IMG/VR virus record: IMGVR_UViG_3300017705_000602
DNA from: a virus
Lineage: Duplodnaviria; Heunggongvirae; Uroviricota; Caudoviricetes
Reading direction: 5' to 3' (one strand)
Length of the DNA stretch: 64,000 nucleotides
Shown here: positions 21,276-39,615 of the stretch, piece by piece
How the letters are laid out: every line of letters begins with the position of its first letter
Position numbering within the stretch: the first letter of the stretch is position 1
Position numbers and translations under genes: made by a program
The notes under the pieces: generated by a model
Databases searched by the model: none
The model's input: the letters and a program-made list of their open reading frames with translations, nothing else
What the model was told of the DNA's origin: nothing

Positions 21276-21337
21276 TGGTAGACTTCTTATCTGTGTGTGC
21301 TATTATGTACACACAGTTAGGAAACAGGAGCAACAAA

Positions 21338-23328: not shown

Positions 23329-23329
23329 C

Positions 23330-23376: not shown

Positions 23377-23454
23377 GAATAAAATAAACAAAAAGGTAGA
23401 CACACGATCTAGCTATGCTATTATATACACACAGTTAGGAAATAGGAGTAACAC

Positions 23455-23841: not shown

Positions 23842-23906
23842 AAAGGTTGCATTCAGATCTGTGTGTGCTATTATGTACACACAGTTAGGAAATAGGAAGA
23901 AAAGAT

Positions 23907-24215: not shown

Positions 24216-24217
24216 TC

Positions 24218-24352
24218 ATGTACTCAGTCATAACCAATTTTGGAAACTTCCCAGGGTTTGGCAGCTATGATGCTGCCAGACGCTTTGCTGTAAATTTGGC
24301 ACCCGGTTACATCTGGGGCATAGACCATCCGTCATACAGGAACATACCATGA
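24218..24352 (+). CDS. 44-aa hypothetical protein (not in ORF track)
   Basis: SD GAGG; MYSVITNFGNFPGFGSYDAARRFA...; stop overlaps next ATG. Confidence 0.5.
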   Translation: MYSVITNFGNFPGFGSYDAARRFAVNLAPGYIWGIDHPSYRNIP

Positions 24353-24747
24353 TACTCGAAGTCAGTCATCGCACAAGAAAGATCTTGATCAGAATCTTGA
24401 TCGCAACTTTGATTTTAACAGGAATGTATTCATTTGTCAAGTGGGCGAACTATGCCGCTGAAGACTTTCGTCACGCGCACAAGCTAACAGTGGACCGCAT
24501 AATCGAATGCTTCAACACAGATCACGAGATACAGTGTCGCGTTGACGCAAGCGACGGTGAAGAATACGTGCTGGACGGTTTAGTCAACCGGGGTCGTACA
24601 GTGTACAAGGAATGCTGGATCAAAGATCCGCGCACAAAAGACGCTAATCAAGAATGGTGTTACACAAATCTGCGCACCAGTTCACGTTATCGTGACGTGA
24701 CACACGAACAAGCTTGGAAAAAACAAGAACAGGAATTATCAGAATAA
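24349..24747 (+). CDS. membrane-anchored protein with periplasmic Cys pairs
   Basis: N-terminal TM helix, four Cys. Confidence 0.7.
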   Translation: MILEVSHRTRKILIRILIATLILTGMYSFVKWANYAAEDFRHAHKLTVDRIIECFNTDHEIQCRVDASDGEEYVLDGLVNRGRTVYKECWIKDPRTKDANQEWCYTNLRTSSRYRDVTHEQAWKKQEQELSE

Positions 24748-24810
24748 AAAGGTTGCATTCCGATCTGTGTGTGCTATTATGTACACACAGTTAGCAAACA
24801 GGAGCAACAC

Positions 24811-25101
24811 ATGAAACTTTCAAAGCGTAATCTTAAAATTGTAGAGCAGTTACAGGAACAGATCGAGCACCATGCGCTGATCATTGCACGCATCAAAGCT
24901 GACTGTCCGTACTTGCCGGACTGGTTCAAGAAAAAGCCTGTAGCATGGTACCAGGGCGCACAAGAGGCAGCGGCAGGCACACTCAATTCAATACTGATGG
25001 AGCACGGTTGTTACCAGGGCTTTCGTACCACATACGCAAAGAACAAGCAATTCAAAGTTGAATATCGATACGATTATTACTTCTTGAGTTCAGCAAAATA
25101 A
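24811..25101 (+). CDS. early hypothetical protein
   Basis: Cassette promoter and SD. Confidence 0.75.
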   Translation: MKLSKRNLKIVEQLQEQIEHHALIIARIKADCPYLPDWFKKKPVAWYQGAQEAAAGTLNSILMEHGCYQGFRTTYAKNKQFKVEYRYDYYFLSSAK

Positions 25102-25175
25102 TTCCAAATAAAGGTTGCCCTGGGCAACCTTTCCTCTTATAATGTACACAACAGTTAGGAACGAGGAAACGCAAA

Positions 25176-25400
25176 ATGGTTTTAAATGGTTTTTGGTTTG
25201 ACGAGAAAGTTGAGCAACTGGTACTCGACTTGCAGGCTGCGCACAAGGCAACCGCAGGTGACTTTCAAAAGGCACTCAAGCTTTTATATCCCGAACATCG
25301 TCAAATCACGTGCGAGCAAGACTTTCGTGACTTTGTAGAAGCTTACACCGACTACGTGGACAATCAGGAAGCCTTGGCCCACTACGGTAGCAACTATTAA
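25176..25400 (+). CDS. early hypothetical protein
   Basis: Cassette promoter and SD. Confidence 0.75.
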   Translation: MVLNGFWFDEKVEQLVLDLQAAHKATAGDFQKALKLLYPEHRQITCEQDFRDFVEAYTDYVDNQEALAHYGSNY

Positions 25401-25475
25401 TTGAAAAAAAGGTGTTGACAACAGTTGGCACCTTTGCTATTATGTACACAACAGTTAGGCACTAGGAGAAACAAA

Positions 25476-25970
25476 ATGGCATACGTATCACAAGAAGACA
25501 AAAAAGCATTAGCACCTGCAATCAAGGCAGTTCTCAAAAAGTACGGCATGAAGGGCACCATTGCCGTACGCCATCACTCAACGCTTGTGGTCAACATCAA
25601 GTCGGGTGACTTGGATGTAATGGGCGCTTGGAAAAAGGCAGCTCTTGAAAAGAACATTCACAAATACGACCTGTATAGCCCTGCAGACGTTGACAATCTC
25701 AATCGCTGTTTGGATGCCACTTACATAGATGTCAACACGTACTGGATAGACACAAACTACGCAGACGAACGTGTGGTTGCATTCTTGAACGAGCTCAAGT
25801 CAGCAATGGAAGGTCCGGACTTCTTTGACGAATCCGATGCAATGACTGACTATTTCCATCGCTCGCACTACATTGACATCAACATTGGGCAGTGGAATAA
25901 GCCATACGTGTGCAACAAAGAGGTTGCCAAGTTTGAGCCTGTTCAAGTTCGAGTTGCAGATCCTGTTTAA
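25476..25970 (+). CDS. early phage protein (MAYVSQEDKK...HHSTLVVNI...SDAMTDYFH...IGQWNKPY)
   Basis: Cassette promoter and SD; motif familiar from marine phage hypotheticals (not searched). Confidence 0.8.
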   Translation: MAYVSQEDKKALAPAIKAVLKKYGMKGTIAVRHHSTLVVNIKSGDLDVMGAWKKAALEKNIHKYDLYSPADVDNLNRCLDATYIDVNTYWIDTNYADERVVAFLNELKSAMEGPDFFDESDAMTDYFHRSHYIDINIGQWNKPYVCNKEVAKFEPVQVRVADPV

Positions 25971-26047
25971 AATAATTGCACAAAAAGGTAGACTTCTTAT
26001 CTGTGTGTGCTATTATGTACACACAGTTAGGAACGAGGAGCAACAAA

Positions 26048-26497
26048 ATGGCAACACAAGCAACAATTGCACGTCACAACACAGATGGCACGTTTGACAC
26101 AATCTATTTACACTTCGATGGCTACCTTGATCACACGTTTCGCATACTGCGCGAGCACTATGCAACACAAGCAAGCGTAGACGAACTGATTGAGTTGGGC
26201 GACCTCAGCGTAATTGCTGAGCATGCTGACCCAGGCCCAGGGCAAGATTATCACAGCTTTGAAACGCCTGCACAAGACGTCTGTATAGCATATCATCGCG
26301 ACAGAGGCGAGTCGTATGCAAAGACCAAAGCACAGCGAGTTCCGTTGCTTACAAGCGACGACACAGCGTTTTATACATACGTGTGGAGCAACGGACAATG
26401 GTACGCTTTTGCAGGTGGCAAGCCAGTTGAAGACCAAGAGCTGGGCACAATGGCATTGGCTGACAAACTGCACCAAATTGAACACATCACTTCCTGA
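26048..26497 (+). CDS. early protein (IYLHFDGY...LIELGDLS...AYHRDRGE)
   Basis: Cassette promoter and SD; motif familiar from phage/MGE hypotheticals. Confidence 0.8.
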   Translation: MATQATIARHNTDGTFDTIYLHFDGYLDHTFRILREHYATQASVDELIELGDLSVIAEHADPGPGQDYHSFETPAQDVCIAYHRDRGESYAKTKAQRVPLLTSDDTAFYTYVWSNGQWYAFAGGKPVEDQELGTMALADKLHQIEHITS

Positions 26498-26504
26498 CTG
26501 TACT

Positions 26505-26547
26505 GGCCCTCCGGGGCCTTTTTTAGCGGTGGTCCACGCTATTTTTT
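26505..26547 (+). terminator. tandem intrinsic terminators
   Basis: GGCCC-TCCG-GGGCC-T6, then AGCG-GTGGTCCA-CGCT-A-T6. Confidence 0.65.
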
Positions 26548-26554
26548 ATAGATA

Positions 26555-26644
26555 GATTTCGGCAGGCCGTGGCCTAGTCGCGTCCCATATCCTCATGGTG
26601 TAGCTTTATGTTTCTTATAATAGCATAACGCACACACAAGTCAA
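26555..26644 (-). ncRNA. minus-strand promoter plus small RNA, copy 2
   Basis: TTGACT-16-TATTAT then ACATAAAGCTACACCATGAGGATATGGGACGCGACTAGGCCACGGCCTGCCGAA. Confidence 0.6.
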
Positions 26645-26737
26645 CCCTAAATAAAATAAAATATCTTGCAGAAAAAGGTTGCACTCTATTCTAGTCGTGC
26701 TATTATGTACACACAGTTAGGAAATAGGAGTTACACA

Positions 26738-27022
26738 ATGTCAGTAAAACAAATTAACAATTGCGCAGACAGGCTAGAACAGATCGTGGAAGAAATGCAA
26801 GAACTGCTTGACGAAGCCGGGACTTTAATCACCGAGATTGATACGCACGGTGAACTCGCAGGGTCAGATTTGAACTTGGAATTCAAGAACTACATTCGCC
26901 CTCACTTACAGATACGCATAGGCGAGGATGGCGGTGGGTACATGTCAAATGAAAAGGGCCTTGGTGACATGGTCAATCGTGCGCGTGAAGTTGCAGATGA
27001 AATGGAACACATGCAAGATTAA
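26738..27022 (+). CDS. early acidic helical protein
   Basis: Cassette promoter and SD. Confidence 0.75.
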   Translation: MSVKQINNCADRLEQIVEEMQELLDEAGTLITEIDTHGELAGSDLNLEFKNYIRPHLQIRIGEDGGGYMSNEKGLGDMVNRAREVADEMEHMQD

Positions 27023-27094
27023 TTGAAAAAATAGGTTGCACTCTATTCTGTGTGTGCTATTATGTACACACAGTTAGCAAACAGGAGTTACACA

Positions 27095-27337
27095 ATGTCA
27101 CAATTATTTCAGCACAACAACATCGAACGTTCAACTTCACGCATCTGGAAAAAGCGCGAGCTCAACAAAATTGTCAAGGCATGCGCCGAAGCTGAGTACG
27201 ATGTGGTTGACACAGGTACACAGATTATAGTTGGTCTCAAAGACACAGATCAAATATTTCTGAAAGCACTCAAAGGCAACGGCTCTTGGTTGGTGCGTTA
27301 CGACAAGGGCTTGTTTGACGAGTCACTGGTAAATTAA
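27095..27337 (+). CDS. early hypothetical protein
   Basis: Cassette promoter and SD. Confidence 0.75.
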   Translation: MSQLFQHNNIERSTSRIWKKRELNKIVKACAEAEYDVVDTGTQIIVGLKDTDQIFLKALKGNGSWLVRYDKGLFDESLVN

Positions 27338-27409
27338 TTGCAAAATGGAGTTGACTGATGTCAACTCCTACTCTATACTGTACACACAGTTAGGAAATAG
27401 GAGACAGTT

Positions 27410-27601
27410 ATGCAAGAAGTTTTAGGTTACGATGTACGCGAGTTGTTCGACCCGGTTCAGACACATGCCGCTTACCGTGTTCCCAGTGATCAGATTGATC
27501 ACTTAAAGCAACACCTCAAGTCCGAGCACAATGCAACCCGCTTTCGTCGAGTTAAAACCATGATATCTGGTATCGAAATTTTGTGTTTTAAATTGAAATA
27601 A
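27410..27601 (+). CDS. early hypothetical protein
   Basis: Cassette promoter and SD. Confidence 0.7.
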   Translation: MQEVLGYDVRELFDPVQTHAAYRVPSDQIDHLKQHLKSEHNATRFRRVKTMISGIEILCFKLK

Positions 27602-27664
27602 AAGGTTGCATTCTTTTCTAGTCGTGCTATTATGTACACACAGTTAGGAAATAGGAGTTACACA

Positions 27665-27901
27665 ATGTCAAACAAAACTTTAATGCTAGGCTTGATCGGA
27701 ACCACCAAAAACGGCACTACCAAGACCGAAATTCATTTTGCGCAGGACAAGCGTTTTCTTGAGTTGCATCAGGAGTCCGGGTACGTGGTAGCAAGCTTGC
27801 CAGTTGGCACAGCACGCGCATTGGCACAAGCAGACAACCGCTGGGAAGTGGCAATTGCACTGTATGATCTGCATGTTGGCACTGGCAAATTAATTGCATA
27901 A
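27665..27901 (+). CDS. early hypothetical protein
   Basis: Cassette promoter and SD. Confidence 0.7.
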   Translation: MSNKTLMLGLIGTTKNGTTKTEIHFAQDKRFLELHQESGYVVASLPVGTARALAQADNRWEVAIALYDLHVGTGKLIA

Positions 27902-27964
27902 AAAGGTTGCATTCGTTTCTGTGTGTGCTATTATGTACACACAGTTAGGAAACGGAGATACAAA

Positions 27965-28210
27965 ATGAAATTTGTTGAGATTGAATTTGAAAACGCAGGC
28001 GCAGCCACCACAGAAACTATTGTGGGTGAGCTGTTGAACAACGTTGCATACGATCACGTCACTGGTTGTGCTGGTTGCTTGATTGGTGCAACTGCTCAAG
28101 ACATTAGCAAATTTACCAGCGAAGTGCAAGACATTGTTTGGAAACATAACGGTGGCATGCTTTGTGAAGTGACGGTAAAGACCGAAGCTGAAGTTGAGCA
28201 TTTGCTTTAA
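27965..28210 (+). CDS. early acidic hypothetical protein
   Basis: Cassette promoter and SD. Confidence 0.7.
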   Translation: MKFVEIEFENAGAATTETIVGELLNNVAYDHVTGCAGCLIGATAQDISKFTSEVQDIVWKHNGGMLCEVTVKTEAEVEHLL

Positions 28211-28274
28211 AAAAAGGTTGCATTCAGATCTGTGTGTGCTATTATGTACACACAGTTAGCAAACGGAGAACAAC

Positions 28275-28412
28275 ATGAGACAGTCCAGTTTAGATACACA
28301 GATTCAGGACCTCAACGACCAGATCGAAGAGGCACAGGCAGCAGGGCGCCAAGGTGAAGCCGAAGAGCTTTACATGGAACTCGAAGAACTTTGTAGAGAA
28401 GAAGACCTATAA
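28275..28412 (+). CDS. 45-aa very acidic early peptide (not in ORF track)
   Basis: Cassette promoter, SD GGAG; MRQSSLDTQIQDLNDQIEEAQAAGRQGEAEELYMELEELCREEDL. Confidence 0.7.
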   Translation: MRQSSLDTQIQDLNDQIEEAQAAGRQGEAEELYMELEELCREEDL

Positions 28413-28690
28413 AAAGGTTGCATTCGTTTCTAGCTGTGTTAGTATAAGCACAGTTAGGAACGAAAGTGTTAACAAGTTTTTTATTTTACGAAATTAAAAA
28501 AAAGATAAAAAACTTATTGACACTACTTGTAGAGTAGGTTATAATAGCTACACACAGTTAGGGCAAAGAACAAAACTTTGCACTACACAAAAAAAATTAA
28601 AAAATTGGTAGACACACAGGTTAGAAAGTGTATAATACACACAAGTTAAACAAACTTAGTTCATAAACACACAGTCCAGGAGACACTATT

Positions 28691-29164
28691 ATGACAAACG
28701 CAACTGTAAACGCAACAAACACAAACACAGCAACTGAAGCAACTGTAGAGCAGCCAGTATTCCGCCCAGGCACAAGCCGCGCAACTGCACTTGATATCTT
28801 TACGCAAATGCTACCACAGCGTGCTGAGTTAGGTAACACAGAGTTCCGTAAGGGTGTTATCGCTAAGATGATGGAAGAGCAGGGCATGACGCTAGCAAGT
28901 GCGGCAGCAACGTACAACATCATCAAGAAGTACGCAGTAAACAATCAGATCGTTGACGACTTTGGACGCACACCGGCAGAGCCAAAGCCAGCTAAGGCAG
29001 CAAAGAAAGCGCCTAAGCCAGAAGCTAAGCCAGAAGTAAAGACAGTGAACGTAGCACGAGCTAAAGACGGCGAAGTCGTAGCAGAAGGCGTTACAGAAGC
29101 TGAAGCGCAAGAGCTTATCGCTAAGGCAGTCAAGCAAAAGAAAGCCAAGCTAGTAATTGCTTAA
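28691..29164 (+). CDS. putative DNA-binding early protein (helical/HTH-like core plus Lys/Ala/Pro linker)
   Basis: SRATALDIF...RKGVIAKMMEEQGMTLASAAATYN; three tandem promoters upstream; terminator after. Confidence 0.65.
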   Translation: MTNATVNATNTNTATEATVEQPVFRPGTSRATALDIFTQMLPQRAELGNTEFRKGVIAKMMEEQGMTLASAAATYNIIKKYAVNNQIVDDFGRTPAEPKPAKAAKKAPKPEAKPEVKTVNVARAKDGEVVAEGVTEAEAQELIAKAVKQKKAKLVIA

Positions 29165-29177
29165 ACTGACAACAAGA

Positions 29178-29202
29178 AAGCGTCCTAAGGGGCGCTTTTT
29201 TT
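29178..29202 (+). terminator. intrinsic terminator
   Basis: AAGCGTCC-TAAG-GGGCGCTT plus T-run; near copy of the 23351 terminator. Confidence 0.8.
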
Positions 29203-29286
29203 GTGACTTTTATTTCAAAAAGAGGTAGACTTCTTTTCTAGCTATGCTATTATGTACACACAGTTAGGAAATAGGAGTAACACAAT

Positions 29287-29571
29287 ATGTCAGTACAATT
29301 TGCAACCAAAAGACTTATCGACTCAGTTTGGACTGTAGCGTTTAAGTGGGTAGACGGTAAAGTAGAGATTGTTAGCTACGATCGCGAGAACACAGTTGGC
29401 TACCAATACGAAAAGGACTTGCCACAGTGTACGCTGATTGAACAAGACGATCGCACTGTAACAGCTATTAGGCTACGCAAGCATCGCTCATTTGACTACC
29501 AGTGGGCCGAAGACGCAGGCGAAGTGTTCGAAGTTGTCAACCCACAGCACGTTTTTAGCTACTCGGATTAA
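29287..29571 (+). CDS. early hypothetical protein
   Basis: Cassette promoter and SD. Confidence 0.75.
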   Translation: MSVQFATKRLIDSVWTVAFKWVDGKVEIVSYDRENTVGYQYEKDLPQCTLIEQDDRTVTAIRLRKHRSFDYQWAEDAGEVFEVVNPQHVFSYSD

Positions 29572-29643
29572 TTAGCAAAAAGGAGTTGACATCAGTCAAC
29601 TCCTACTCTATACTGTACACACAGTTAGAAAACGGAGTACAAC

Positions 29644-29946
29644 ATGCAACAACCAATTTTAACACCACTTACTACCAGCGCATTCATCAAGCGTGTGCGC
29701 AAGGCAGGCTTTATTGAGCGCAACGAAAACTATCCTGTGGTAGCAGAAGTGCCAGACGGATATGTGTTTGTGTGCTTCAACGACAACGACGGCACATGGT
29801 TCGTGAACAAGTTCTGGCTCAACACAAATGACTGGAACTGTCAACCGATATTCGAATGTGACACTTATTCGGGTGCGTTTGCTTACTTTCAGTTAGAGTA
29901 TGTGAGACAGCTTGAGCAACGTAAAATTAAATTGTCTTTGTTTTAA
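29644..29946 (+). CDS. early hypothetical protein
   Basis: Cassette promoter and SD. Confidence 0.75.
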   Translation: MQQPILTPLTTSAFIKRVRKAGFIERNENYPVVAEVPDGYVFVCFNDNDGTWFVNKFWLNTNDWNCQPIFECDTYSGAFAYFQLEYVRQLEQRKIKLSLF

Positions 29947-30011
29947 TTAATGGTAGACTTCTTATCTGTGTGTGCTATTATGTACACACAGTTAGGAAAC
30001 GGAGATACAAT

Positions 30012-30458
30012 ATGTCACAACTAGAACAGCTACAAGATTTAATCAAGCAAGCCAAGCAACAGAACTGGCCAGGCAGTACCTTGTCATTTTCACGAGGTGT
30101 GTTCTCAAGCAACATCATGTTCGCAAGCGTAACGCTAGGCGCAACAATGGACGAGATGCCAAACCGCATTTTACAGAATGATCCGCTTCGTGTCAAGTTT
30201 TATATTGAACAGAAACTTAGCGGTGAGATCTCAGTAGAGCCGACCATGATCATTGGCAGACTCAAGCCGGAAAGTGCAATGTACGCAATGTCAAGTGAAA
30301 AGGTACGCACACGCAAGGTCACTGGCTCTGCAGAAAAAGTTGCACAGTCAATCGGTAAAATGCTTGACAAGTTGCGTGTTAGGATTGAACAGCTGGACAA
30401 CGAAGATCGTTTCCTGGACGGACTAACGTATTCAATTTCAGAAAAAGTTTGCAAATAA
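30012..30458 (+). CDS. early hypothetical protein
   Basis: Cassette promoter and SD. Confidence 0.75.
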   Translation: MSQLEQLQDLIKQAKQQNWPGSTLSFSRGVFSSNIMFASVTLGATMDEMPNRILQNDPLRVKFYIEQKLSGEISVEPTMIIGRLKPESAMYAMSSEKVRTRKVTGSAEKVAQSIGKMLDKLRVRIEQLDNEDRFLDGLTYSISEKVCK

Positions 30459-30522
30459 AAGGTTGCATTCAGATCTGTGTGTGCTATTATGTACACACAG
30501 TTAGGAAATAGGAAGAAACGAA

Positions 30523-30768
30523 ATGAACGAATTAACAATTGCAGAACTTGAAGAATTGATTGCAGATGCCAAAGCTTGTGGTGCAACAGAAGACACGCCT
30601 GTACACTTTAGCTACAACTACGGCGACCACTGGCGTACTACAGTTGCACCAAGCGCAAGCAATGCAGAGCTATTGTACGTAGAGCGCAGTGACTACCACC
30701 GCATGGACAAGTTAACCGAAGACGAAGGTGAACAAGAAAGCGATCGTCAAGTGTTTGTAATCTCATAA
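30523..30768 (+). CDS. early acidic protein (FSYNYGDHWRT...SDYHRMDK)
   Basis: Cassette promoter and SD. Confidence 0.75.
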   Translation: MNELTIAELEELIADAKACGATEDTPVHFSYNYGDHWRTTVAPSASNAELLYVERSDYHRMDKLTEDEGEQESDRQVFVIS

Positions 30769-30845
30769 AAAATAAAACAAAAGGGTTGACACCAGTTAAC
30801 CCTTTTCGTATAATGTACACACAGTTAGGAAATAGGAGCAACAAA

Positions 30846-31109
30846 ATGAACAACGTAGAAATTTATGCACAAGCCATAGCAGACTCAATTGCTGGATCTT
30901 CAGCACAAGGCGTAACCAGCTGGGACGATCCTGAGTTTGGTCGAGTTGCTTGCAAAATTGTCGAGCCTGTTATTGGCAACGCAGAGGCAAGCGAAGAGTA
31001 CTTCGAGTACATGGAAACAGACGCTGACAACTGGGCCAACTGGATTGCGCAGACGTTTGGTGAGGACTGGGGTCGAGTTGCACGAGTAGTAGCTGAAGAA
31101 GGATACTAG
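30846..31109 (+). CDS. early acidic protein
   Basis: Cassette promoter and SD. Confidence 0.75.
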   Translation: MNNVEIYAQAIADSIAGSSAQGVTSWDDPEFGRVACKIVEPVIGNAEASEEYFEYMETDADNWANWIAQTFGEDWGRVARVVAEEGY

Positions 31110-31180
31110 CGCACAAAAAGGAGTTGACATCAGTTGGCTCCTTTGTTATCATGTACACAGTTAGGAAACAGGAGCAACAC

Positions 31181-31558
31181 ATGCGCACAGAACAAAAGAA
31201 ACGTTTAATAAAAATGATTAAGGTAGACGCAGTCTATCTTGCGGCAGCATCATTGATGTTGATTGATCACTGGATAGGCACAGCGGCAGCAATCGTGTTC
31301 ACTGTTTACATTGCTGTCATATGGGCCACGCTCATGCTCAAATGGGACAGTATTGTGATTGAAATGGATCGCCAGTATCGGCACTCGGGCTCACCGCAAC
31401 TGTTCGTGCTCAATTGTGCAGTTGCTGTCGTGATGTCGTGTATCATATTCTTTTCGCCCATTGATGCAGTGTGGTCAGGTGTCATATTCGGATTGTACAT
31501 GATCACCTCCTTGTTGTCAGCAAAAATATATCAAGACATAATGAAAAATAATCTTTAA
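31181..31558 (+). CDS. early four-helix membrane protein
   Basis: Four hydrophobic segments. Confidence 0.75.
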   Translation: MRTEQKKRLIKMIKVDAVYLAAASLMLIDHWIGTAAAIVFTVYIAVIWATLMLKWDSIVIEMDRQYRHSGSPQLFVLNCAVAVVMSCIIFFSPIDAVWSGVIFGLYMITSLLSAKIYQDIMKNNL

Positions 31559-31697
31559 AAAGGTAGACTTCTTATCTGTGTGTGCTATTATGTACACAGT
31601 TAGGAAGCAAAGGAACAGCTTTTAAAACCACAAGGAGTGTGCGTACAGCACGCTCCTTTTTTATATTGTACACAACACTAAACGAGAGGTACAACAC

Positions 31698-33149
31698 ATG
31701 CGACACACACAACTAATCGCAACCGCACTCGCAACAGTTATCTTGACCGCATGTGGAGGTGGAGGTGGCTCAGAGACCACAGTAGCACAAACACAGGCAG
31801 TGGCACCACCTCCTGCACCACCAACACCACCTCCTGCACCAGTTGCAACAGACGATCGTGAAACTGTGTGGACATTTGCAGTTGGCACCGAAGTTGTAGC
31901 AACAACAATCGGCGGTGAGTATCCAGCTCGCATCGGAGACTTTTTTGTCGACGACTTTGACGGAGATGGCATCAACGACATACTGATAGGCGGCGCAACC
32001 TGGGACAACGAATCCGGTGCCGATGACTGGAGCGGACAGCCAGCACAGTACGAAGTGCTACGCGGCACAGACACAGGCTTTGAATTGGATACCCGCATGC
32101 TGTTCGGAGACTACGACGCAGAAATGATAATGCCGGTTGACTTTCTTGTACATGACTATGACGGCAATGGTACACTTGACATTGTGGTAGCAGGCACAGG
32201 ACTTGACAAAGCACACGGCAGTGGTGACAAGGCCGAACTGTGGATTAACACAGGACAGCTACCACTTGTGAACCGATCTGCAGACTTGAACTTTGACGAA
32301 ACACTGTTCACGCACTCGGCAACCAGAGGTGACTTTAACGGTGACTCGTTTATGGATGTATCGCTTTGGCAGTGTTGCGTAGTGCCTAACGTGTCGTTTC
32401 AGGAGTCATCAGGTGCTACCTTGATCAACAACGGCAGTGGTGAATTCGAACATGTCAAGGAATATGTACCTGCAGAGTTTGACCCAGAGTATATACGAGC
32501 ACGCATGCCAGGAACAGGGTCCTGGGCAGTGATTGACTCACTTGCTATTGACTTGAACGGTTCGGGCTGCGACGACTTGATACTGGGCGCTGTAGGCACT
32601 GTACACCCATCGCAAATACTGTGGAACCATTGTGAAGGTTCGTTAAGCAAGCCTGTACTGTCAGCAGACGAGCAGTCGGAAACAACTGTTATACCAGATG
32701 ACGGAGAGTGGGTACAAATACTTGGCATCATGGAGTATCCTGTTAACAACGACGAACACAAAGACCTGTTAGTAATACGTAGCACGCACGAAGGTCAAGG
32801 TACACACTTGCAACTGTTACGCAACAACGGCGACAACACGTTTACAGATGTGTCAGAGAACAGCACCATTGAGCCATACACATCTATTCCTCAAAGTCAA
32901 AACAGATTGTTCGATTTTGACAATGACGGGTACCTGGACATAGCATTCATTGACGCAGTGTATCGTGGCACACCGCAAGGCTTGGTCAAAGTTGAACTTG
33001 ACATCAATGAATTTTACGGTGCAGTGTTTGCAATTGACGTAGACAACGATGGTGACACTGACCTTGTGCATCGCAACATAACAGAGTCAACATTTGGATA
33101 TGTCAACCAAGAAGTGCAATACACAGTGTTAGAAAACACCACAATCTAA
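31698..33149 (+). CDS. lipoprotein with FG-GAP/VCBS (DxDGDG) beta-propeller repeats
   Basis: Lipobox LTACGGGGG, Pro-rich linker, repeats DFDGDGIND, DYDGNGTLD, DFNGDSFMD, DLNGSGCDD, DFDNDGYLD, DVDNDGDTD. Confidence 0.85.
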   Translation: MRHTQLIATALATVILTACGGGGGSETTVAQTQAVAPPPAPPTPPPAPVATDDRETVWTFAVGTEVVATTIGGEYPARIGDFFVDDFDGDGINDILIGGATWDNESGADDWSGQPAQYEVLRGTDTGFELDTRMLFGDYDAEMIMPVDFLVHDYDGNGTLDIVVAGTGLDKAHGSGDKAELWINTGQLPLVNRSADLNFDETLFTHSATRGDFNGDSFMDVSLWQCCVVPNVSFQESSGATLINNGSGEFEHVKEYVPAEFDPEYIRARMPGTGSWAVIDSLAIDLNGSGCDDLILGAVGTVHPSQILWNHCEGSLSKPVLSADEQSETTVIPDDGEWVQILGIMEYPVNNDEHKDLLVIRSTHEGQGTHLQLLRNNGDNTFTDVSENSTIEPYTSIPQSQNRLFDFDNDGYLDIAFIDAVYRGTPQGLVKVELDINEFYGAVFAIDVDNDGDTDLVHRNITESTFGYVNQEVQYTVLENTTI

Positions 33150-33233
33150 ACACAACAATTTCGAAATAAAGGTTGCCCAGTGCAACCTTTTCTTGTATTA
33201 TATACACACAGTTAGGAAATAGGAATACACAAC

Positions 33234-33659
33234 ATGACACAGTACACAACACAACAGCTAGAACTTAAAGCACACATCGAAGCAGAGAACGAAAAGTTCA
33301 CAGCACGGGCAGTAGAGAGCGGGGCAACCATGATCATGACGCCTGCGGCTGATTTGGATATGTGGGCCAGCATGGGAGTGTTCAACATCGAGCAGTACAC
33401 ACGAAGCACGCTGGAAGGCGAAATCAGCGACATGGAGAAAGAACTGTACGGCATCAAGCTTCGCAGAGACTTGTCACAATGCACTGTGGAACAGCTACAA
33501 GCTGAGCTAGACAGCTTGCACACATACGCAAGGCGCGAACAAGAGTTTGCACAAGAGCTTGAGCGCAAGCGTAGACAGCGCACACAACAACGCAACCAAG
33601 AGTTCAAGCAACAAGGCAATGTGATGGCGCAGGCATTTGCACAAGCAAAAGTCAAATAA
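33234..33659 (+). CDS. early coiled-coil protein
   Basis: Cassette promoter and SD; weak similarity to 35760. Confidence 0.75.
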   Translation: MTQYTTQQLELKAHIEAENEKFTARAVESGATMIMTPAADLDMWASMGVFNIEQYTRSTLEGEISDMEKELYGIKLRRDLSQCTVEQLQAELDSLHTYARREQEFAQELERKRRQRTQQRNQEFKQQGNVMAQAFAQAKVK

Positions 33660-33718
33660 AGGTAGACTTCCGATCTGTGTGTGCTATACTGTACACACAG
33701 TTAGGAAATGAGGAGACG

Positions 33719-34168
33719 ATGATGGGACAAGGCGCAGAAGACGCAGGCGGTTACGAAATAGATTACGACCCGGCTTACGAAGGGTTGTGGCATGCCGAAC
33801 CACGTTGGGCAAACGAAACGCCTGTCAGTCAAATGACAACACAGCATGTCAAGAACGCACTCAGAGTGGCACGCAGGCATGCAGGCACCAGCACGTTCGA
33901 ATGTGACGACGACAAGTGGGAAGACTGGGTAGAAATACTAGACCGAGAACTTGCCAGTCGCAGTCAGAAACGCAAGGCAGTAGCCGCAACAAAAGCAAAA
34001 GCTAAACAGCCTGTGCGCGGTGCAAAGCACAAGATGCAATGTCATTGCGGCAAGCACTACGAAGCACGCAAAGCTGACATCAAGCGTGGCTACGGCAGGT
34101 CTTGTTCTAAGCGATGCGCAAGCATACGCAGAGAGTTCGGTAGAGCACCTGCAAAAATAATTGAATAA
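33719..34168 (+). CDS. early protein with C-terminal zinc finger (CHCGK...RGYGRSCSKRC)
   Basis: Cys cluster; cassette promoter. Confidence 0.75.
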   Translation: MMGQGAEDAGGYEIDYDPAYEGLWHAEPRWANETPVSQMTTQHVKNALRVARRHAGTSTFECDDDKWEDWVEILDRELASRSQKRKAVAATKAKAKQPVRGAKHKMQCHCGKHYEARKADIKRGYGRSCSKRCASIRREFGRAPAKIIE

Positions 34169-34229
34169 AAGGTTGCATTCAGATCTTGGTGTGCTATTAT
34201 ATACACAGTTAGGAAACGGAGTAAACATT

Positions 34230-34466
34230 ATGTCAAAAGAATTAGTAATCGTATACAACAGCCAATACCAAAATTATGATGTCAAAGACATCGGTGGTGT
34301 ATATCCACGTCACAGTGTGTTAGCTGGGCAGCCAATGATTGTGTTTATCGATTCGTTCGAAACACTGGATGAGGCACAAGCGGCTTATCCTCAAGCAACT
34401 GTGAGCAACGACTTGTTGATGCCACAAAACACGTTTGATCACTTACCGGATGAAGCAGACTATTAA
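34230..34466 (+). CDS. early hypothetical protein (SVLAGQ...FDHLPDE)
   Basis: Cassette promoter and SD. Confidence 0.75.
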   Translation: MSKELVIVYNSQYQNYDVKDIGGVYPRHSVLAGQPMIVFIDSFETLDEAQAAYPQATVSNDLLMPQNTFDHLPDEADY

Positions 34467-34538
34467 GGCAAAAAAGGTGTTGACAACAGTTGGCACCTGT
34501 CGTATAATAGCTTTAACAGTTAGGAAAAGGCGAAACAC

Positions 34539-34742
34539 ATGTTACAGTATTGCGATTACATTGCGGCGCAGGCTCAACAAGCGATCAAACAGGATCCTGA
34601 GAGCTTACTGAAAGAAACAGGCGCTGTCAAGCTTGACTTGCACCCACAAGAAGGGTACTTGCAGAGCACAACAAAGACCGTTGAAGTTACCGACAAGTAT
34701 GGACAGCGATATCGTGTAACTGTAGAGGCAGTAGACGCCTAA
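34539..34742 (+). CDS. early hypothetical protein
   Basis: Cassette promoter and SD. Confidence 0.7.
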   Translation: MLQYCDYIAAQAQQAIKQDPESLLKETGAVKLDLHPQEGYLQSTTKTVEVTDKYGQRYRVTVEAVDA

Positions 34743-34897
34743 AACGAAGTTTAGCGATCTGCCCCGGCTACACGCTAGCAACTACGCAGTCTGTACAAGA
34801 GGCAAATCCAGAATTGAACCAATACGTGGCGATTAGTACGTTGGTACTGGTCCGGTTCGATTAACGGCATTTTAAATGAAGTATAACATTATAAAGG

Positions 34898-35136
34898 TTG
34901 ACATAACACACAAACACTGTATAATGTATGTAACACAATTTAAAGATTTATTAGTGCTGGGTACAAGTTTTCATGTTGTTCCTTTTAGTTAGCACCAATT
35001 GTTGTTAGGTCATGTACCCAGCACTAATAGATTTTAAAGAATACTACCGGCAAGTGCTCTTGCCAATTGTGTCTCCTGATAGCGAGTTGGCTATCATCCT
35101 AACTGTTAGGGGTCCTTCGGGGCCCCGCCTCCTTTT
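34898..35136 (+). ncRNA. promoter plus ~200-nt small RNA antisense to the shared early leader/RBS
   Basis: TTGACA-16-TATAAT; 17-bp stem 34949-65/35013-29; TGTGTCTCCT and TCCTAACTGT flank a hairpin; ends in GGGGTCC-TTCG-GGGCCCC hairpin. Confidence 0.7.
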
Positions 35137-35213
35137 ACAAATCCTCAAAAAATGGTTGCATTCTGTTCTGCTCCTGCTATACTGTACACACAGTTAGGAA
35201 CAAGGAGCAACAC

Positions 35214-35438
35214 ATGCAACACACAAATCATTTCGCGCAAGACACAGACGTAACTTATTACGGTTCTGTTGTAGGCTACGACTTTTACATGACGGACGAC
35301 AACATTGTGCTGATCCAGTTTGGTGAGCAAGAACAGGAGTACATGTCTATGTCACTTGAGTCGGCTCGACGCATTGAACAGCACCATTATCGTGCCGCTG
35401 TTATGTTGTGGGACTTACACCAACAAAAGGTTGCATAA
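35214..35438 (+). CDS. early hypothetical protein
   Basis: Cassette promoter and SD. Confidence 0.7.
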   Translation: MQHTNHFAQDTDVTYYGSVVGYDFYMTDDNIVLIQFGEQEQEYMSMSLESARRIEQHHYRAAVMLWDLHQQKVA

Positions 35439-35489
35439 CGCAGCCTTTTTTCTTATAATGTACACACAGTTAGGAACAAGGAACCGCAC

Positions 35490-35705
35490 ATGAAAGACTA
35501 CGTTAACCAGGCAGCACCCAAGCAAGAAAACAAGATTGTTACCATGATATTCTTTTCAATAGCCATGTTTGGCATGTTCATGTTTCTTGGTGTTGTTACT
35601 ATAGCAACTGTGAGCACAGCAAGCGATAACACCGTGAACGCAGGCATTGCAGGTGCCGTGATGTTTGTGATAGGAACCATTGCAGGTTGGAACCGAAAAA
35701 CATGA
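35490..35705 (+). CDS. early two-helix membrane protein
   Basis: Two TM segments. Confidence 0.7.
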   Translation: MKDYVNQAAPKQENKIVTMIFFSIAMFGMFMFLGVVTIATVSTASDNTVNAGIAGAVMFVIGTIAGWNRKT

Positions 35706-35759
35706 GTTGACAACAACGCAACAACATGTTACCATGCACACTCACAAGGAGATAAGTGC

Positions 35760-36020
35760 ATGGACGAACTGTTAGAACACATCGGTGAGCTGAACGTAAT
35801 GAAAAAGCTGACCGGTGATTACATTTTTTATTCACAGGAAGCTGAGTATTGGAAATCACAAAAGGTCGAGTCTGTCAAGGACTTTGAACACTGGCAAGCC
35901 AAGCAAGAGTACGAACGAACATATCGTGCCCTTGGCCACAGAGGTTACTTGCCAATAGATCCCGATGCATACACAGCTGAACAACTACAACAACAAACGC
36001 GAGCAATGACACAAGGATAG
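35760..36020 (+). CDS. hypothetical protein
   Basis: SD AAGGAG. Confidence 0.7.
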   Translation: MDELLEHIGELNVMKKLTGDYIFYSQEAEYWKSQKVESVKDFEHWQAKQEYERTYRALGHRGYLPIDPDAYTAEQLQQQTRAMTQG

Positions 36021-36024
36021 CACA

Positions 36025-36471
36025 ATGGAAAACTTCAACTTCGAAGTACTCGACAGCGATCAAATTGACATCAACGGCACTGTTATCGATTTGCACACAG
36101 TCCCGCAAAACAGATTGGACACCATGCAAGCCAGGTATTCGAACAAGGCGGGCAGTGATGCCGACTGGGAAAGCGGTGGATACTATGCGGCAGCTCTTGA
36201 GGCCATTGAGCGAGTTCAAGCACATCGAGTTGAATTTCCTGAAGTGACCAAGGACCCCGAAGACTTGTTGGCCATAGCTAAATCCAAGCAGGTAGACGAG
36301 ACCGTGATATGTCCGCAATGCAAAACTCCATTTGTCAAGACACAATCACAACAGACTTTTTGTTCAAACGGCCGAGGTGACAGTCAAGGCAACTGCAAGG
36401 ATCGATACTGGAACCTGCACTCACCTGCACGCAAACAAAGACTTGACAACATTCACGAGAACTATGTATGA
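36025..36471 (+). CDS. protein with C-terminal zinc finger (CPQC...FCS...CKDRYWN)
   Basis: Cys motif. Confidence 0.7.
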   Translation: MENFNFEVLDSDQIDINGTVIDLHTVPQNRLDTMQARYSNKAGSDADWESGGYYAAALEAIERVQAHRVEFPEVTKDPEDLLAIAKSKQVDETVICPQCKTPFVKTQSQQTFCSNGRGDSQGNCKDRYWNLHSPARKQRLDNIHENYV

Positions 36472-36710
36472 AAGACAGTACAAAAGGATTTGTGGCATTT
36501 GCCATGTTTGCATTATCGGTAACCATGTGCTTGCTCAGCTTTAACAGCATTCTTGGATTCATGTGCGGCATAGTTGCACTGGTCCTGATCGGTAACGGAC
36601 GCATGCAAGACTGGGCTGACATAGGGCAGTTTATAACTCCACGTGTGTTCACTTTCATTGTGTTGCTGTCAGGTACACTGTTAGTGATCGGACAGTCACT
36701 AAATACGTAA
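36468..36710 (+). CDS. small membrane protein
   Basis: Three hydrophobic segments. Confidence 0.65.
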   Translation: MKDSTKGFVAFAMFALSVTMCLLSFNSILGFMCGIVALVLIGNGRMQDWADIGQFITPRVFTFIVLLSGTLLVIGQSLNT

Positions 36711-36731
36711 AAATAAAACGAGTATAACACA

Positions 36732-36974
36732 ATGATGGAAATAGAAAAACACGAAGTGATATTTTTCACTCACAACAAACGCAAGTACGCCAGGTTCCCC
36801 GATTGCGAATGGTTTCGCAAGAGCAAGAAAGGAAACTGGAAGCAATTGGACGAACACGACACTGATCTGATCGAAAATCGTTATCGCGCAGTCAAGCGTG
36901 AGATGCGCAAGAACTTTCTAAAAGAACTTGAATTCTTCTCAGGTTGGAGACCAAAAGACAAAGACAAAGATTAG
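36732..36974 (+). CDS. small basic protein
   Basis: Preceded by CTAAATA late-type motif. Confidence 0.65.
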   Translation: MMEIEKHEVIFFTHNKRKYARFPDCEWFRKSKKGNWKQLDEHDTDLIENRYRAVKREMRKNFLKELEFFSGWRPKDKDKD

Positions 36975-36975
36975 G

Positions 36976-37137
36976 TTGACACCTGGTCAGTCAGTTGCTA
37001 TTATAGTGACAGTGTTAGCGCACAGCAAGGTGTTGTTAAGTCCTCGCCTTGTACTACTTGATTGTCAAAGTCATCACCCCCAACCGATGACCCTTCATGT
37101 ACAATCGCAGGCTTGCAGAAATGTAAGCCTTTTTTTT
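36976..37137 (+). ncRNA. promoter plus ~125-nt small RNA with C-rich loops and terminator
   Basis: TTGACA-17-TATTAT; hairpins CAAGGTG/CGCCTTG and GTCATC-ACCCCCAACC-GATGAC; terminator AGGCTTGCA-GAAA-TGTAAGCCT-T-run; no SD-led ORF. Confidence 0.7.
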
Positions 37138-37193
37138 GACTTCTGTTTCTGAGCATGCTATCATATGCACAACCAACCACTTAAGGAATCAAC

Positions 37194-37757
37194 ATGAAAT
37201 ACTGTATCATGATTGTGCTGGCTGTGTTCAGTTTCAGCACACTAGCACAACAGGCACCCGAATGCAAGATCGATCCGGATTGGAAACAATCCAAAATACA
37301 AGAAACACTGGAGGCCTGTAAGCAATCGACCACGGCTGTAGTGCCACAAGCAGTAGCACAAGACGTGAGTGCGTATGCAGAAATTGCCAAAGGTGTAGCT
37401 GAAGCTATAGGTATTGCCGCACGCGAAGTAGGTGTAGCTGTAGACGAGTTTGTGAAAACAGACACAGGCAAGATGACCGTTGCACTTATAGTGTGGCACG
37501 TTGCAGGAGATGATATCAAAGGCATGCTGTTTGGCATTCCCGGCATCTTGTTTGCAGTGTGGTTGTGGTTTACCATTGCTGCCAGACTCAAACGAACAGG
37601 TGAGTATGTTACTGTCAAGAATCGTTGGGGTCGCGAAGTGAGCGTACACAAGCTCAAGGCAGTGGCCGACTTTGATGGACCAGATGGATTCAGCTTTCTG
37701 ATACTGTCCGTGTTCTGTGGCGCCATTGTGGTAGTGTGCTTGGCAAACATATTCTAA
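37194..37757 (+). CDS. membrane protein with signal peptide
   Basis: Signal peptide; AIGIAAREVGVAVDEFVKTDTGKMTVALIVW; TM helices. Confidence 0.8.
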   Translation: MKYCIMIVLAVFSFSTLAQQAPECKIDPDWKQSKIQETLEACKQSTTAVVPQAVAQDVSAYAEIAKGVAEAIGIAAREVGVAVDEFVKTDTGKMTVALIVWHVAGDDIKGMLFGIPGILFAVWLWFTIAARLKRTGEYVTVKNRWGREVSVHKLKAVADFDGPDGFSFLILSVFCGAIVVVCLANIF

Positions 37758-37846
37758 AAACATATCACAAAAAACAAATAAAAGGTTGCATGGTGCAGCC
37801 TTTTTTCTTATACTGTACACAACAGTTAGGAAAAAGGAAAAGCAAC

Positions 37847-38071
37847 ATGTCACAAGAACTAAACCAAGTAGTAACAGAATTGAACCGTGAACGCAAGTTC
37901 GAAGGCCATGCACCTGTAGACAGTGCTAGCAGTCAAAGGTGGGTAGTACTTGACTACATCTACGATCAGCTTGCATCTGAAACACTGTACGGCACACGCA
38001 CAGCACGTCAAGCACAAAAGCGCAAGCGCGAGCTTGAGTCAGCCAAGTCACAGTTGTTGGAGCAAGCATAA
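37847..38071 (+). CDS. early hypothetical protein
   Basis: Cassette promoter and SD. Confidence 0.7.
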   Translation: MSQELNQVVTELNRERKFEGHAPVDSASSQRWVVLDYIYDQLASETLYGTRTARQAQKRKRELESAKSQLLEQA

Positions 38072-38580
38072 TGCCAAAGAGCAAAAGAACAACACCGGTT
38101 ACACCTTGGGACCCCAGCAAGCGTGCAACAGCTCGTGTAAAGAATCCAATCCCGGTACCAACCGACTGTCCACACTGCGAAGGCACCGACATCGAGATCT
38201 GCAAGAACTCACGTGTGTATCGCGGTCGAACATATGGTGAATGGCCTTGGGTGGTCATGTGCAATACATGTTCAGCCTACGTGGGCTTGCATCCGTTTAC
38301 AGGTATTCCTCTAGGCACACTGGCCGATCGCCAGACCAGAGATGCACGCAAACGAGTCAAGCAGGAATTTATTACATGGCAAGAAACCAACTGCCTGTCG
38401 CGCAACGATGCGTACCGATTGCTGGCACAAAAGATGCGTATACCCAGCGAACAGTGTCACTTTGGCTGGTTTGATTTTGACCAATGCGATCTTGCAATGC
38501 ACGCAGTACGCAAACTGGAGCAACAGAAACGTTACCGTCCAGACTCACCTTTTGCAAAATTGAGAGAATTACTCAGTTGA
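38071..38580 (+). CDS. DUF3268-family zinc-finger protein
   Basis: CPHC...C..C.AYVGLHP.T.IPLGTLA...CHFGWF...C. Confidence 0.85.
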   Translation: MPKSKRTTPVTPWDPSKRATARVKNPIPVPTDCPHCEGTDIEICKNSRVYRGRTYGEWPWVVMCNTCSAYVGLHPFTGIPLGTLADRQTRDARKRVKQEFITWQETNCLSRNDAYRLLAQKMRIPSEQCHFGWFDFDQCDLAMHAVRKLEQQKRYRPDSPFAKLRELLS

Positions 38581-38641
38581 CAACGCCAGCCATGTGCGTT
38601 ATCATGTACATGAAACAATATGCAATCAAAGGAATAAAAAT

Positions 38642-39118
38642 ATGACCACAGTAGCGCAATTGATTATTGAAAAGCTAACCGCAATCGAAGATCGTCTCGC
38701 ACAGATTGAACAGCGACTTGACAATCACGAAACAGCATTTTTAAACGACATTGTTGAGCCGGCCACGACTGCCACAGTTTCGGTTAAGCCCACACGCAAA
38801 CGCAAAAAAGGAAACCGGCATGCCAAGCATCTTCCGCATCGCATTGCAACCAAGTTGCTGGAAGACCATGAGCTGGCCGAAAGCACTCGCAACACGTATG
38901 CCAACACACTGCGCCGCTTGCTAGAAAACACCTGGATGGTACCAACCTTGATCAAGAAGCGTAACCAAGGCGTGCCATACGAATACATTGCTCAAGACCC
39001 ACAGTTCAGCGACTACAACAGCAAGCGTCTGCAAAACATGGTCAGCGTAGGATTGCGTTATGGTGTAATCGAACGTGAGTCAGATGGCAAGTACCGCGAA
39101 GGCAACATCACAGCATAA
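38642..39118 (+). CDS. putative DNA-binding protein (coiled coil, basic linker, winged-helix-like C-terminus)
   Basis: KPTRKRKKG linker; GVIERESDGKY wing-like end. Confidence 0.6.
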   Translation: MTTVAQLIIEKLTAIEDRLAQIEQRLDNHETAFLNDIVEPATTATVSVKPTRKRKKGNRHAKHLPHRIATKLLEDHELAESTRNTYANTLRRLLENTWMVPTLIKKRNQGVPYEYIAQDPQFSDYNSKRLQNMVSVGLRYGVIERESDGKYREGNITA

Positions 39119-39176
39119 TCATGCAAGCACAGGGTTGCCACCGGGTAGCCCTGTACCAACACAAGGATAACACAAC

Positions 39177-39374
39177 ATGGTAGTAGGATCAATCTGGTGG
39201 GGCATGATTGGCATTGCACTTGCACTGTACAACAGTGTCATGCTTTATCAAAACACACAAGCCTGCATCGAAAAACCTGAACGCGCACGCAGACCATTCA
39301 TGATATTCATGCTAGTGATAGGTGCCATAACCGGCCCTGTGTTGCTAGTATACGTTGTGTACGGAATGTTATAA
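39177..39374 (+). CDS. small membrane protein
   Basis: Two TM helices, SD AAGGA. Confidence 0.65.
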   Translation: MVVGSIWWGMIGIALALYNSVMLYQNTQACIEKPERARRPFMIFMLVIGAITGPVLLVYVVYGML

Positions 39375-39375
39375 C

Positions 39376-39549
39376 ATGTGGTGGGTCACTGTACTGAACG
39401 CAGTGCTCGTGGTGTTTCACGGCACCATGCTGATACACTACGCACGCAGTATGAAACAAGACAACAACGACTGGAATTGGTTTAGCTGTAACATGTCAGC
39501 GTTCTTGTTTGTAATGCTGGGCGCAAGCGTGATTGATAATATTTTTTAA
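39376..39549 (+). CDS. small membrane protein
   Basis: Two TM helices. Confidence 0.6.
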   Translation: MWWVTVLNAVLVVFHGTMLIHYARSMKQDNNDWNWFSCNMSAFLFVMLGASVIDNIF

Positions 39550-39615
39550 AAAGGTGTTGACAAGTGTACCCGTTCAATCTATACTGTACACAACAGTTAG
39601 GAAACGGAGCAACAC

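Follow-up and report, generated by a model that had tools for sequence, protein, structure and literature searches.

Between positions 34898 and 35136 of a 64,000-nucleotide (nt) stretch of viral DNA (the window; IMG/VR record IMGVR_UViG_3300017705_000602, Caudoviricetes) lies an element that is, very probably, a genuine + strand gene for a structured noncoding RNA (ncRNA). The RNA is predicted to expose two short segments complementary to the leader and Shine-Dalgarno (SD) sequence of a large set of repeated gene cassettes in the same early region. Its sequence makes a class-specific anti-leader regulator the most likely reading, one directed at the messages of a single leader class (class A). 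An earlier note on this DNA had read it as a trans-acting small RNA that recognizes the repeated leader as an address tag and silences the early regulon. A conserved + strand RNA gene with a seed predicted to be accessible is what stands of that proposal; its reach does not, as class A is not the whole regulon. Regardless of mechanism, the element represents a genuine and conserved ncRNA family, not described before, in marine jumbo phages, and a variant of antisense control.

The RNA gene and its predicted fold

The promoter, the two complementary blocks, the hairpins and the perfect 17-base-pair (bp) stem are all where the earlier note had seen them. In 5' to 3' order, the features are:

34898..34925, + strand: sigma-70-type promoter, TTGACA (34898-34903), 16 nt, TATAAT (34920-34925); predicted start at ~34932
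34932..35136, + strand: noncoding RNA of ~205 nt, both ends predicted; identified by fold energy and conservation
34943-34965 / 35013-35035, + strand: stem of domain 1, 23 bp (RNAfold), comprising 17 perfect bp (34949-34965 / 35013-35029) and an extension with two G.U pairs
34969-34984, + strand: segment of the domain 1 loop, TTTCATGTTGTTCCTT
35049..35064, + strand: small hairpin GGCAAG-UGCU-CUUGCC, of which GTGCTCTTGC is kept in four of five lineages
35068-35077, + strand: block A, DNA TGTGTCTCCT, RNA UGUGUCUCC (35068..35076); CUCC is an exposed anti-SD sequence, UGUGU is predicted to be paired with an upstream AUAC
35077-35083 / 35090-35096, + strand: hairpin 1, UGAUAGC, loop GAGUUG, GCUAUCA; seven pairs, three changed on both sides, 100% paired in six sequences
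35097..35106, + strand: block B, DNA TCCTAACTGT, RNA UCCUAACUGU; exact complement of class A leader positions +1..+10, ACAGUUAGGA
35109-35126 (with tail to 35136), + strand: 3' hairpin GGGGUCC-UUCG-GGGCCCC, terminator-like; seven pairs, three changed on both sides

The promoter matches consensus at 12 of 12 positions and is one of two perfect matches within 33000-38000. The 205-nt + strand folds with a minimum free energy of -74.2 kcal/mol (z = -7.1, against z = -4.8 for the - strand); the long stem of domain 1 closes a 47-nt loop that contains UCAUGUUGUUCCUUU. Beyond the 3' hairpin the sequence is GCCTCCTTTT (RNA GCCUCCUUUU), in which GCCUCC stands between the stem and a short U-tract of only UUUU, unlike the U-tail that comes directly after the stem in a Rho-independent terminator; the tails of relatives differ (GUCCUCGUUU, GUUCCUCUUU, GUUUCCCUUC, GCUCCCCUAU). 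The CCTCC to which the earlier note drew attention past the UUCG hairpin is present, but it is not conserved in the relatives.

A small protein encoded within the RNA was considered and rejected, there being no conserved or SD-led open reading frame (ORF), in keeping with what the earlier note had said of the region. The 38-amino-acid frame begins 5' of the predicted RNA start and the 61-amino-acid frame begins inside the stem; the peptide words common to the five homologues are short, occur in all frames of both strands, and lie only over conserved 3' nucleotides. A tRNA scan finds nothing, and Rfam 15 yields no match at gathering thresholds over the whole window; at E values up to 5 over 34700-35200 only four matches appear, at 12-20 bits against thresholds of 37.8-122. 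Searching the window with the element itself returns one full copy (109 bits) and a weak relative at 23296-23384 (16.7 bits, E 0.014).

Relatives, conservation and strand

The DNA of the window has no relatives among the phages deposited in GenBank, either for the element or for 28000-40000; its relatives are found in marine metagenomes only. Contigs encoding close homologues of one window protein extend to 320-332 kilobases (kb), and an IMG/VR relative of 79.5 kb (G001) is rated 22% complete. From this, the RNA gene belongs to a marine jumbo phage not yet in culture; the window itself resembles a phage early region. Relatives were collected by scanning metagenomes with an 18-mer of the leader, which yielded ~25 marine contigs; later scans with a degenerate pattern of the RNA's 3' domain added one IMG/VR contig and one contig of a metagenome-assembled genome (MAG). 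The element occurs in five lineages, on nine contigs (the window and L037; L016 and L058; L034; L056, L024 and L057; L010). In IMG/VR, a 17-mer of the leader gives a single match per contig, and the 79.5-kb contig that bears the match designated L001 also bears the RNA homologue L057. Although L058 (NZGE01000032.1) was assigned to a Magnetococcales MAG, the phage RNA gene and class A cassettes on it make mis-binning of a phage contig probable.

The promoter is kept in all five lineages as TTGAC(A/T), 16-17 nt and TAT(A/T)AT, with spacers of differing sequence. The predicted sizes of the homologous RNAs are 205, 220, 356 and 452 nt. Every lineage has a long stem at the same place, of ~17-27 bp, which is either perfect or contains a few G.U pairs or a bulge, and its sequence is unrelated between lineages. 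The domain 1 loops are CU-rich in four of the five, and the 356-nt (L034) and 452-nt (L010) RNAs have two or three additional long hairpins, so that the number of long hairpins per lineage runs from one to four.

The 3' domain gives a consensus fold (RNAalifold) of two hairpins with 14 pairs, in six of which both partners have changed. Pairing in the six aligned sequences is complete (84 of 84 cells); none of 500 shuffles does as well in pairing or covariation, and slid controls pair in 37-54%, the covariation resting on five lineages. Variable columns number two of nine in block A, 12 of 28 at paired positions and 46 of 59 at other unpaired positions. No base of block B differs among the six aligned sequences, the relatives among them having been found through the leader or the anti-leader; the GAGU of the hairpin 1 loop is conserved in sequence, as is the small hairpin. 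This pattern is that of an RNA with helices selected for pairing and linker segments selected for primary sequence. Wobble pairs favor the + strand: five G.U cells of the 3' domain turn into A.C on the - strand, leaving 79 of 84 cells paired (against 84 of 84); the U.G pair of the 3' hairpin fits the + strand only; a C-to-T difference between L016 and L058 in the long stem makes a G.U pair on the + strand; and in the window the added part of the long stem uses G.U pairs.

Predicted pairing with the class A leaders

The predicted targets of the RNA are the following:

19470..39602 (motifs 19470-39593), + strand: 35 near-identical cassettes, each with a promoter, ACAGTTAG(G/C)N, then (A)GGAG

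The layout of a cassette is an A-rich stretch, a stem-loop or -35 element (GGTTGCA / GGTAGAC), TGCTATTAT, GTACAC, ACAGTTAGGA-AAT-AGGAG and ATG; 32 of the 35 have an ATG start and three (28450, 28554 and 31596) are without an ORF. Promoter geometry (the usual spacing from the -10 element) predicts that the mRNAs begin at the A of ACAG, which would place the leader tag at the extreme 5' end of each message. Exact copies of ACAGTTAGGA in the window number 30 on the + strand and two on the - strand (23334 and 35097); allowing up to one mismatch raises the total to 44, where 3.8 would be expected. The core 8-mer, CCTAACTG, has + strand copies only at 23335 and 35098.

Block B of the RNA is the exact complement of +1..+10 of ~30 early mRNAs, CUCC(U) complements (A)GGAG, and the two blocks stand in antiparallel order. 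They belong to the conserved single-stranded segments, (UGUR)UCUCC and UCCUAACUGU, that flank hairpin 1. The unpaired probability of block B is at least 0.71 at every position in three of four homologues (in L034 the last three positions are at 0.16-0.29). The last two bases of CUCC are unpaired at 0.91-1.0 in all four, and its four bases at 0.93-1.0 in three (the first two being at 0.3 in L016). The UGU(G/A)U of block A has an unpaired probability that is mostly below 0.5, its predicted partner being the conserved upstream AUAC. The earlier proposal of a two-block, antiparallel match making a three-way junction over the SD sequence is thus upheld for block B, for CUCC and in cofolding, but not for the UGUGU half of block A, which is predicted to be paired internally; within block A only CUCC(U) would count as an anti-SD seed.

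When the 205-nt RNA is cofolded with each of the 32 cassette start regions, ddG averages -17.5 kcal/mol (standard deviation 2.7), and 27 of the 32 are at or below -16; the weakest partners are AGCA variants and two GGAA-type leaders. Random 43-mers average -3.7 (minimum -11.4) and shuffled leaders -4.6, none of 150 reaching -16 in either set, and for 26 non-cassette start regions the values run from -1.2 to -14.8. These energies mostly restate the 10-mer match; the independent points are the accessibility of the seeds and the boundary of the complementarity. The predicted complex is a three-way junction with 10 bp on +1..+10, the AAU facing hairpin 1, and 5 bp on the SD sequence. That the RNA pairs with class A leaders is, on these models, a probable conclusion. 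Among the 26 non-cassette starts the sole sizeable interaction is that of the start region at 53794 on the - strand (-14.8 kcal/mol).

The loop of domain 1 had been put forward as a second seed, against SD and AUG together. Its mean pairing energy over the 32 start regions, -12.9 kcal/mol, compares with -10.7 for shuffled loops, and 16 of 200 shuffles do as well, so that this part of the earlier proposal is weak; UCAUGUUGUUC, the complement of the GAACAACAUGA start regions, is found in the window and in the L016 lineage alone.

The complementarity goes no further than the predicted +1. The cassette has TATTAT and GTACAC, then ACAG; past block B the RNA reads UAGGGG or AGGGGG, where the reverse-complemented cassette is GUGUAC. 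This boundary favors an RNA-RNA interface over an inverted DNA copy of a cassette. A feature acting at the level of DNA, be it a decayed inverted cassette or an inverted copy of a protein operator lying in the initially transcribed region of the early promoters, is accordingly given very little credence. Loop 1 (anti-AUG), block A and block B are colinear with the reverse-complemented cassette, which makes an inverted cassette plausible as the evolutionary origin of the element, and a protein that binds double-stranded DNA would be indifferent to orientation. Nevertheless, cassette homology does not continue past +1 (neither -10 element nor discriminator is found there), the hairpins that separate the blocks show covariation and have G.U pairs suited to the + strand only, the seeds are predicted to be single-stranded in the RNA, and the + strand promoter is conserved. 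There is no promoter-like site upstream on the - strand; the sole - strand site (9 of 12) is inside the element and is directed away from the anti-leader blocks. The decayed inverted cassette, which the earlier note had itself raised as an objection to its reading, is thus contradicted by purifying selection in five lineages, by the + strand G.U pairs and by the end of complementarity at +1.

A second anti-leader and the cis alternative

The window contains one further exact anti-leader, in the 3' untranslated region (3'UTR) of ORF 22675-23328:

23330..23377, + strand: second anti-leader; hairpin CCUC[UCCUAACUGU]GAGG (23330-23347) and intrinsic terminator (23352-23377)

Here the anti-leader (23334-23343) lies in the loop of a 4-bp hairpin, 5 nt past the stop codon. 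Four distinct versions of this 3'UTR occur in relatives, at several loci (CCTT..AAGG, CCTT..GAGG, a loop TCCCAACTGT and a variant TCCTCCCTAACTGT); the stem shows compensatory change (CCUC/GAGG, CCUU/GAGG, CCUU/AAGG), one version has an altered base in its loop, and one is rearranged (UCCUCCCUAACUGU). The leader of ORF 22675-23328, alone in the window, reads GGAGAU (ACAGTTAGGAGAT), and it matches its own 3'UTR over 12 nt (CUCUCCUAACUGU); relatives of this ORF have the leader GGAAAU with UUUCC in the 3'UTR (UUUCCUAACUGU), also over 12 nt. The homologue in a diverged phage (L023) has a class B leader, and its anti-A element is absent. These sequence relationships support functional leader/anti-leader pairing in general, and they keep a cis (5'-3') reading alive for ORF 22675-23328.

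Extended to the element at 34898-35136, that reading makes a 3'-end module of it: the anti-leader would pair with the leader of the same transcript and set the translation or stability of the upstream gene, and the promoter-driven RNA would be secondary. The placement of the 23334 element behind a class A-led gene, the 12-nt match of that gene's leader to its own 3'UTR (again found in relatives), and the lack of a 3'UTR element in the homologue with a class B leader all favor it. So does the stretch from ORF 34539-34742, whose class A leader is at 34516, to the 35109 hairpin: it lacks a terminator-like site, and read-through transcripts would therefore hold both leader and anti-leader. Yet a consensus promoter of its own precedes the RNA in every one of the five lineages, and the cassette closest to it on the upstream side in L056 bears a leader of another class than A. 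Moreover, the U-to-C change of the 3'UTR has a compensating partner in the local hairpin too, so that the 12-nt leader match counts as a single event. On this evidence a cis module is an unlikely account of the element, and pairing in trans is preferred.

Leader classes and the reach of the RNA

In a diverged relative (L023, L024, L056 and L057), otherwise similar early promoters are followed by at least four distinct, conserved kinds of leader, named A (ACAGTTAGGAAATAGGAG), B (ACGTAGACAATAAGGAAACGGAG), C and D, and the RNA of this relative still carries the anti-A seed. Because that RNA addresses only class A, the RNA is class-specific and at best reads class A, not the whole early regulon. 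Nor does it simply act on the next gene, since in L056 the cassette directly 3' of the RNA has a class D leader without complementarity. The sequences suggest that leader classes are separate addressable sets.

The step from pairing to function is favored in the following form, although the considerations for and against it are about evenly balanced: the RNA would pair in trans with class A leaders and would block their ribosome-binding sites. The leader 5'-ACAGUUAGGA-AAU-AGGAG-3' would engage blocks B and A around hairpin 1 in the three-way junction; the SD sequence would be hidden and binding of the 30S subunit prevented, and the leader/RNA duplex might also mark the mRNA for decay. Being compact and GC-clamped, the RNA would outlast the mRNAs and accumulate, and its accumulation would shut off class A early genes post-transcriptionally and with a delay. 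The 3'UTR anti-leader of ORF 22675-23328 would act in the same manner, in cis, in trans or both. Stems of 17-27 bp are in principle long enough for RNase III. Translational shut-off in trans as the consequence of pairing is, as far as sequence alone can guide, a proposition with equal weights on its two sides.

A number of points weigh against this account. In the diverged relative only ~4 of ~25 cassettes are class A, and anti-B, anti-C and anti-D elements are not found in L023, L024, L056 or G001. The leader and anti-leader are invariant by ascertainment, because the relatives were found through the one or the other; a scan for RNA homologues with block B left free returned only a known contig, and the G/A difference in block A between lineages does not covary with the leader spacers. 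Start, end, strand and abundance of the RNA are predictions; termination, the 3' end and any Hfq-type 3' end are doubtful, because the U-tract is short, displaced and variable in relatives. The extra hairpins of the 356- and 452-nt homologues suggest roles beyond that of a simple antisense seed. Exact 10-mers also occur inside coding sequence of G001 (9834 and 55715; two in 79.5 kb, taken as chance). Finally, a single RNA promoter stands against ~35 similar target promoters, and with this stoichiometry and a weak terminator, the 'master off-switch' of the earlier note can only be inferred.

Pairing might also have a different outcome: protection or storage of mRNA 5' ends, or decoy buffering; or the main role of the RNA might reside in the variable long hairpins, as double-stranded RNA or as a protein scaffold. 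Pairing that starts from the predicted 5'-terminal nucleotide of the mRNA could in principle mask the message from 5'-end-dependent decay; the three ORF-less cassettes (one of which, at 31596, is a leader with an intrinsic terminator) are predicted to give leader-only transcripts; the long hairpins vary in number (one to four) and length between lineages; and the GAGU of the hairpin 1 loop and the small hairpin are conserved in sequence. Against this, the SD sequence is within the predicted duplex, which is normally repressive, and the reading is inferred throughout. We regard such outcomes as improbable, and keep translational repression in trans as the favored one.

Two arrangements of the ORF-less cassettes may be recorded here. 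At 31560-31668 a class A leader runs into an intrinsic terminator (AGGAGUGUGCGUACAGCACGCUCC and U6) without an intervening ORF, predicting a leader-only transcript of ~70 nt from the 31596 cassette; this unit lies 5' of an FG-GAP-repeat gene at 31698 and is identical in L029. Its role could be that of an attenuator, or it could draw off the anti-leader RNA as a decoy. At 28415-28690 there are three promoter-like cassettes in a row, with the leaders at 28450 and 28554 lacking an ORF; the segment is noncoding, yet ~88% conserved across many related contigs.

Comparison with known systems

GcvB and RybB present a conserved single-stranded seed, located between hairpins, to many mRNAs near their ribosome-binding sites; their motifs are short and degenerate, and they depend on Hfq and on a terminator U-tail. 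The present RNA also has a conserved seed that is predicted to be unpaired, but this is an exact 10-mer aimed at the mRNA 5' end, and its U-tail is poor. The c4 RNA of P1/P7 pairs through two separate segments. It is 77 nt long, has one target mRNA (ant) and serves lysogenic immunity, whereas the RNA described here is 205-452 nt long (predicted), belongs to a lytic-type early region, and has a seed that matches ~30 mRNAs by way of a common 5' tag. According to the 2025 review PMC12197685, c4 is a trans-acting, structured antisense RNA that blocks the ant ribosome-binding site. The likeness is that of a phage-encoded structured antisense RNA exposing complementary segments around a ribosome-binding site, which in the present case is predicted only (PMC12197685); homology to c4 in sequence or structure is not found, as judged by the absence of an Rfam match.

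The T4 nuclease RegB inactivates many early mRNAs by way of GGAG in their start regions (PMC3014915). RegB is a protein and recognizes GGAG with ribosomal protein S1, whereas in the present system an RNA would be the reader, and a 10-nt 5' tag together with the SD sequence would serve as the address; the two would be functional analogues. One may go further and picture a circuit made of RNA alone, in which a 10-nt 5' tag borne by a temporal class of messages is read by the ncRNA and by 3'UTR anti-leaders, with leader-only decoys, to time the shut-off of ~30 genes. This is possible, although we lean against it as a whole. If true, RegB would have an RNA counterpart, and a lytic phage would provide the first case of antisense switching of a whole regulon.

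The promoter-early stem-loops (PeSLs) of T4-like phages are composite terminator/promoter motifs between small early genes of a hyperplastic region, described as recombination and regulatory motifs in abstracts that mention no antisense RNA (PMC4122927, PMC2839356). The 35 cassettes of the window resemble them in being repeated between small genes and in having stem-loop terminators that overlap the -35 element (35425-35449, 37780-37804 and 33168-33190, each then followed by a -10 element); the present phage is without detectable DNA relatives among deposited phages. If pairing occurs as predicted, the cassettes would constitute a post-transcriptional address system besides being recombination and transcription modules, and the system would also be a compact, portable means of switching many genes by one RNA. 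Known phage regulatory RNAs act mostly on single genes or on host targets, and Table 1 of PMC12197685 lists none that addresses a class-wide leader. Likewise, an RNA antisense to a common phage early leader is described neither in that table nor in the open-access papers and bioRxiv preprints retrieved by keyword or motif, where the leader 11-mer and its reverse complement turn up in unrelated papers only.

Neighboring sequences and genes

A further conserved segment adjoins the RNA promoter:

34743..34897, + strand: upstream module with a GCCCC...GGGGC-type stem, an AGUAC-GUUG-GUACU hairpin and a TTTA(A/G)AATGA(A/C)GT box beside the -35 element

This module of ~150 nt travels with the RNA gene behind differing genes; it is aligned in four lineages and also seen in L010, it occurs once in the window, and its RNAalifold energy is -12.9 kcal/mol on the + strand against -1.5 on the -. 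The TTTA(A/G)AATGA(A/C)GT box could, from its sequence and position, be an UP element or a regulator site. The proteins of the small genes beside the element have matches only in non-syntenic phages (Alteromonas phage PT11-V22 and the IMG/VR contigs L007-L009).

The product of ORF 22675-23328, which carries the second anti-leader, is a protein of 217 amino acids with 58-75% identity to 15 metagenome proteins. It has no Pfam or PHROG family and no match by tblastn in phages; its AlphaFold2 model has a predicted local distance difference test score of 86, and a Foldseek search of this model against the PDB yields nothing at E <=0.001. VIA-align places WYL domains at Z 5-6.2 and Hfq/Sm barrels at Z ~4, values within the background range of the tool that were not used as evidence; a nucleic-acid-binding barrel would be only a lead.

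At 44604-63950 a long block on the - strand has genes for at least six proteins that match a radical SAM PHROG, for a UDP-glucose dehydrogenase-like protein and for an NAD-dependent epimerase/dehydratase, which is an unusual concentration in a phage.

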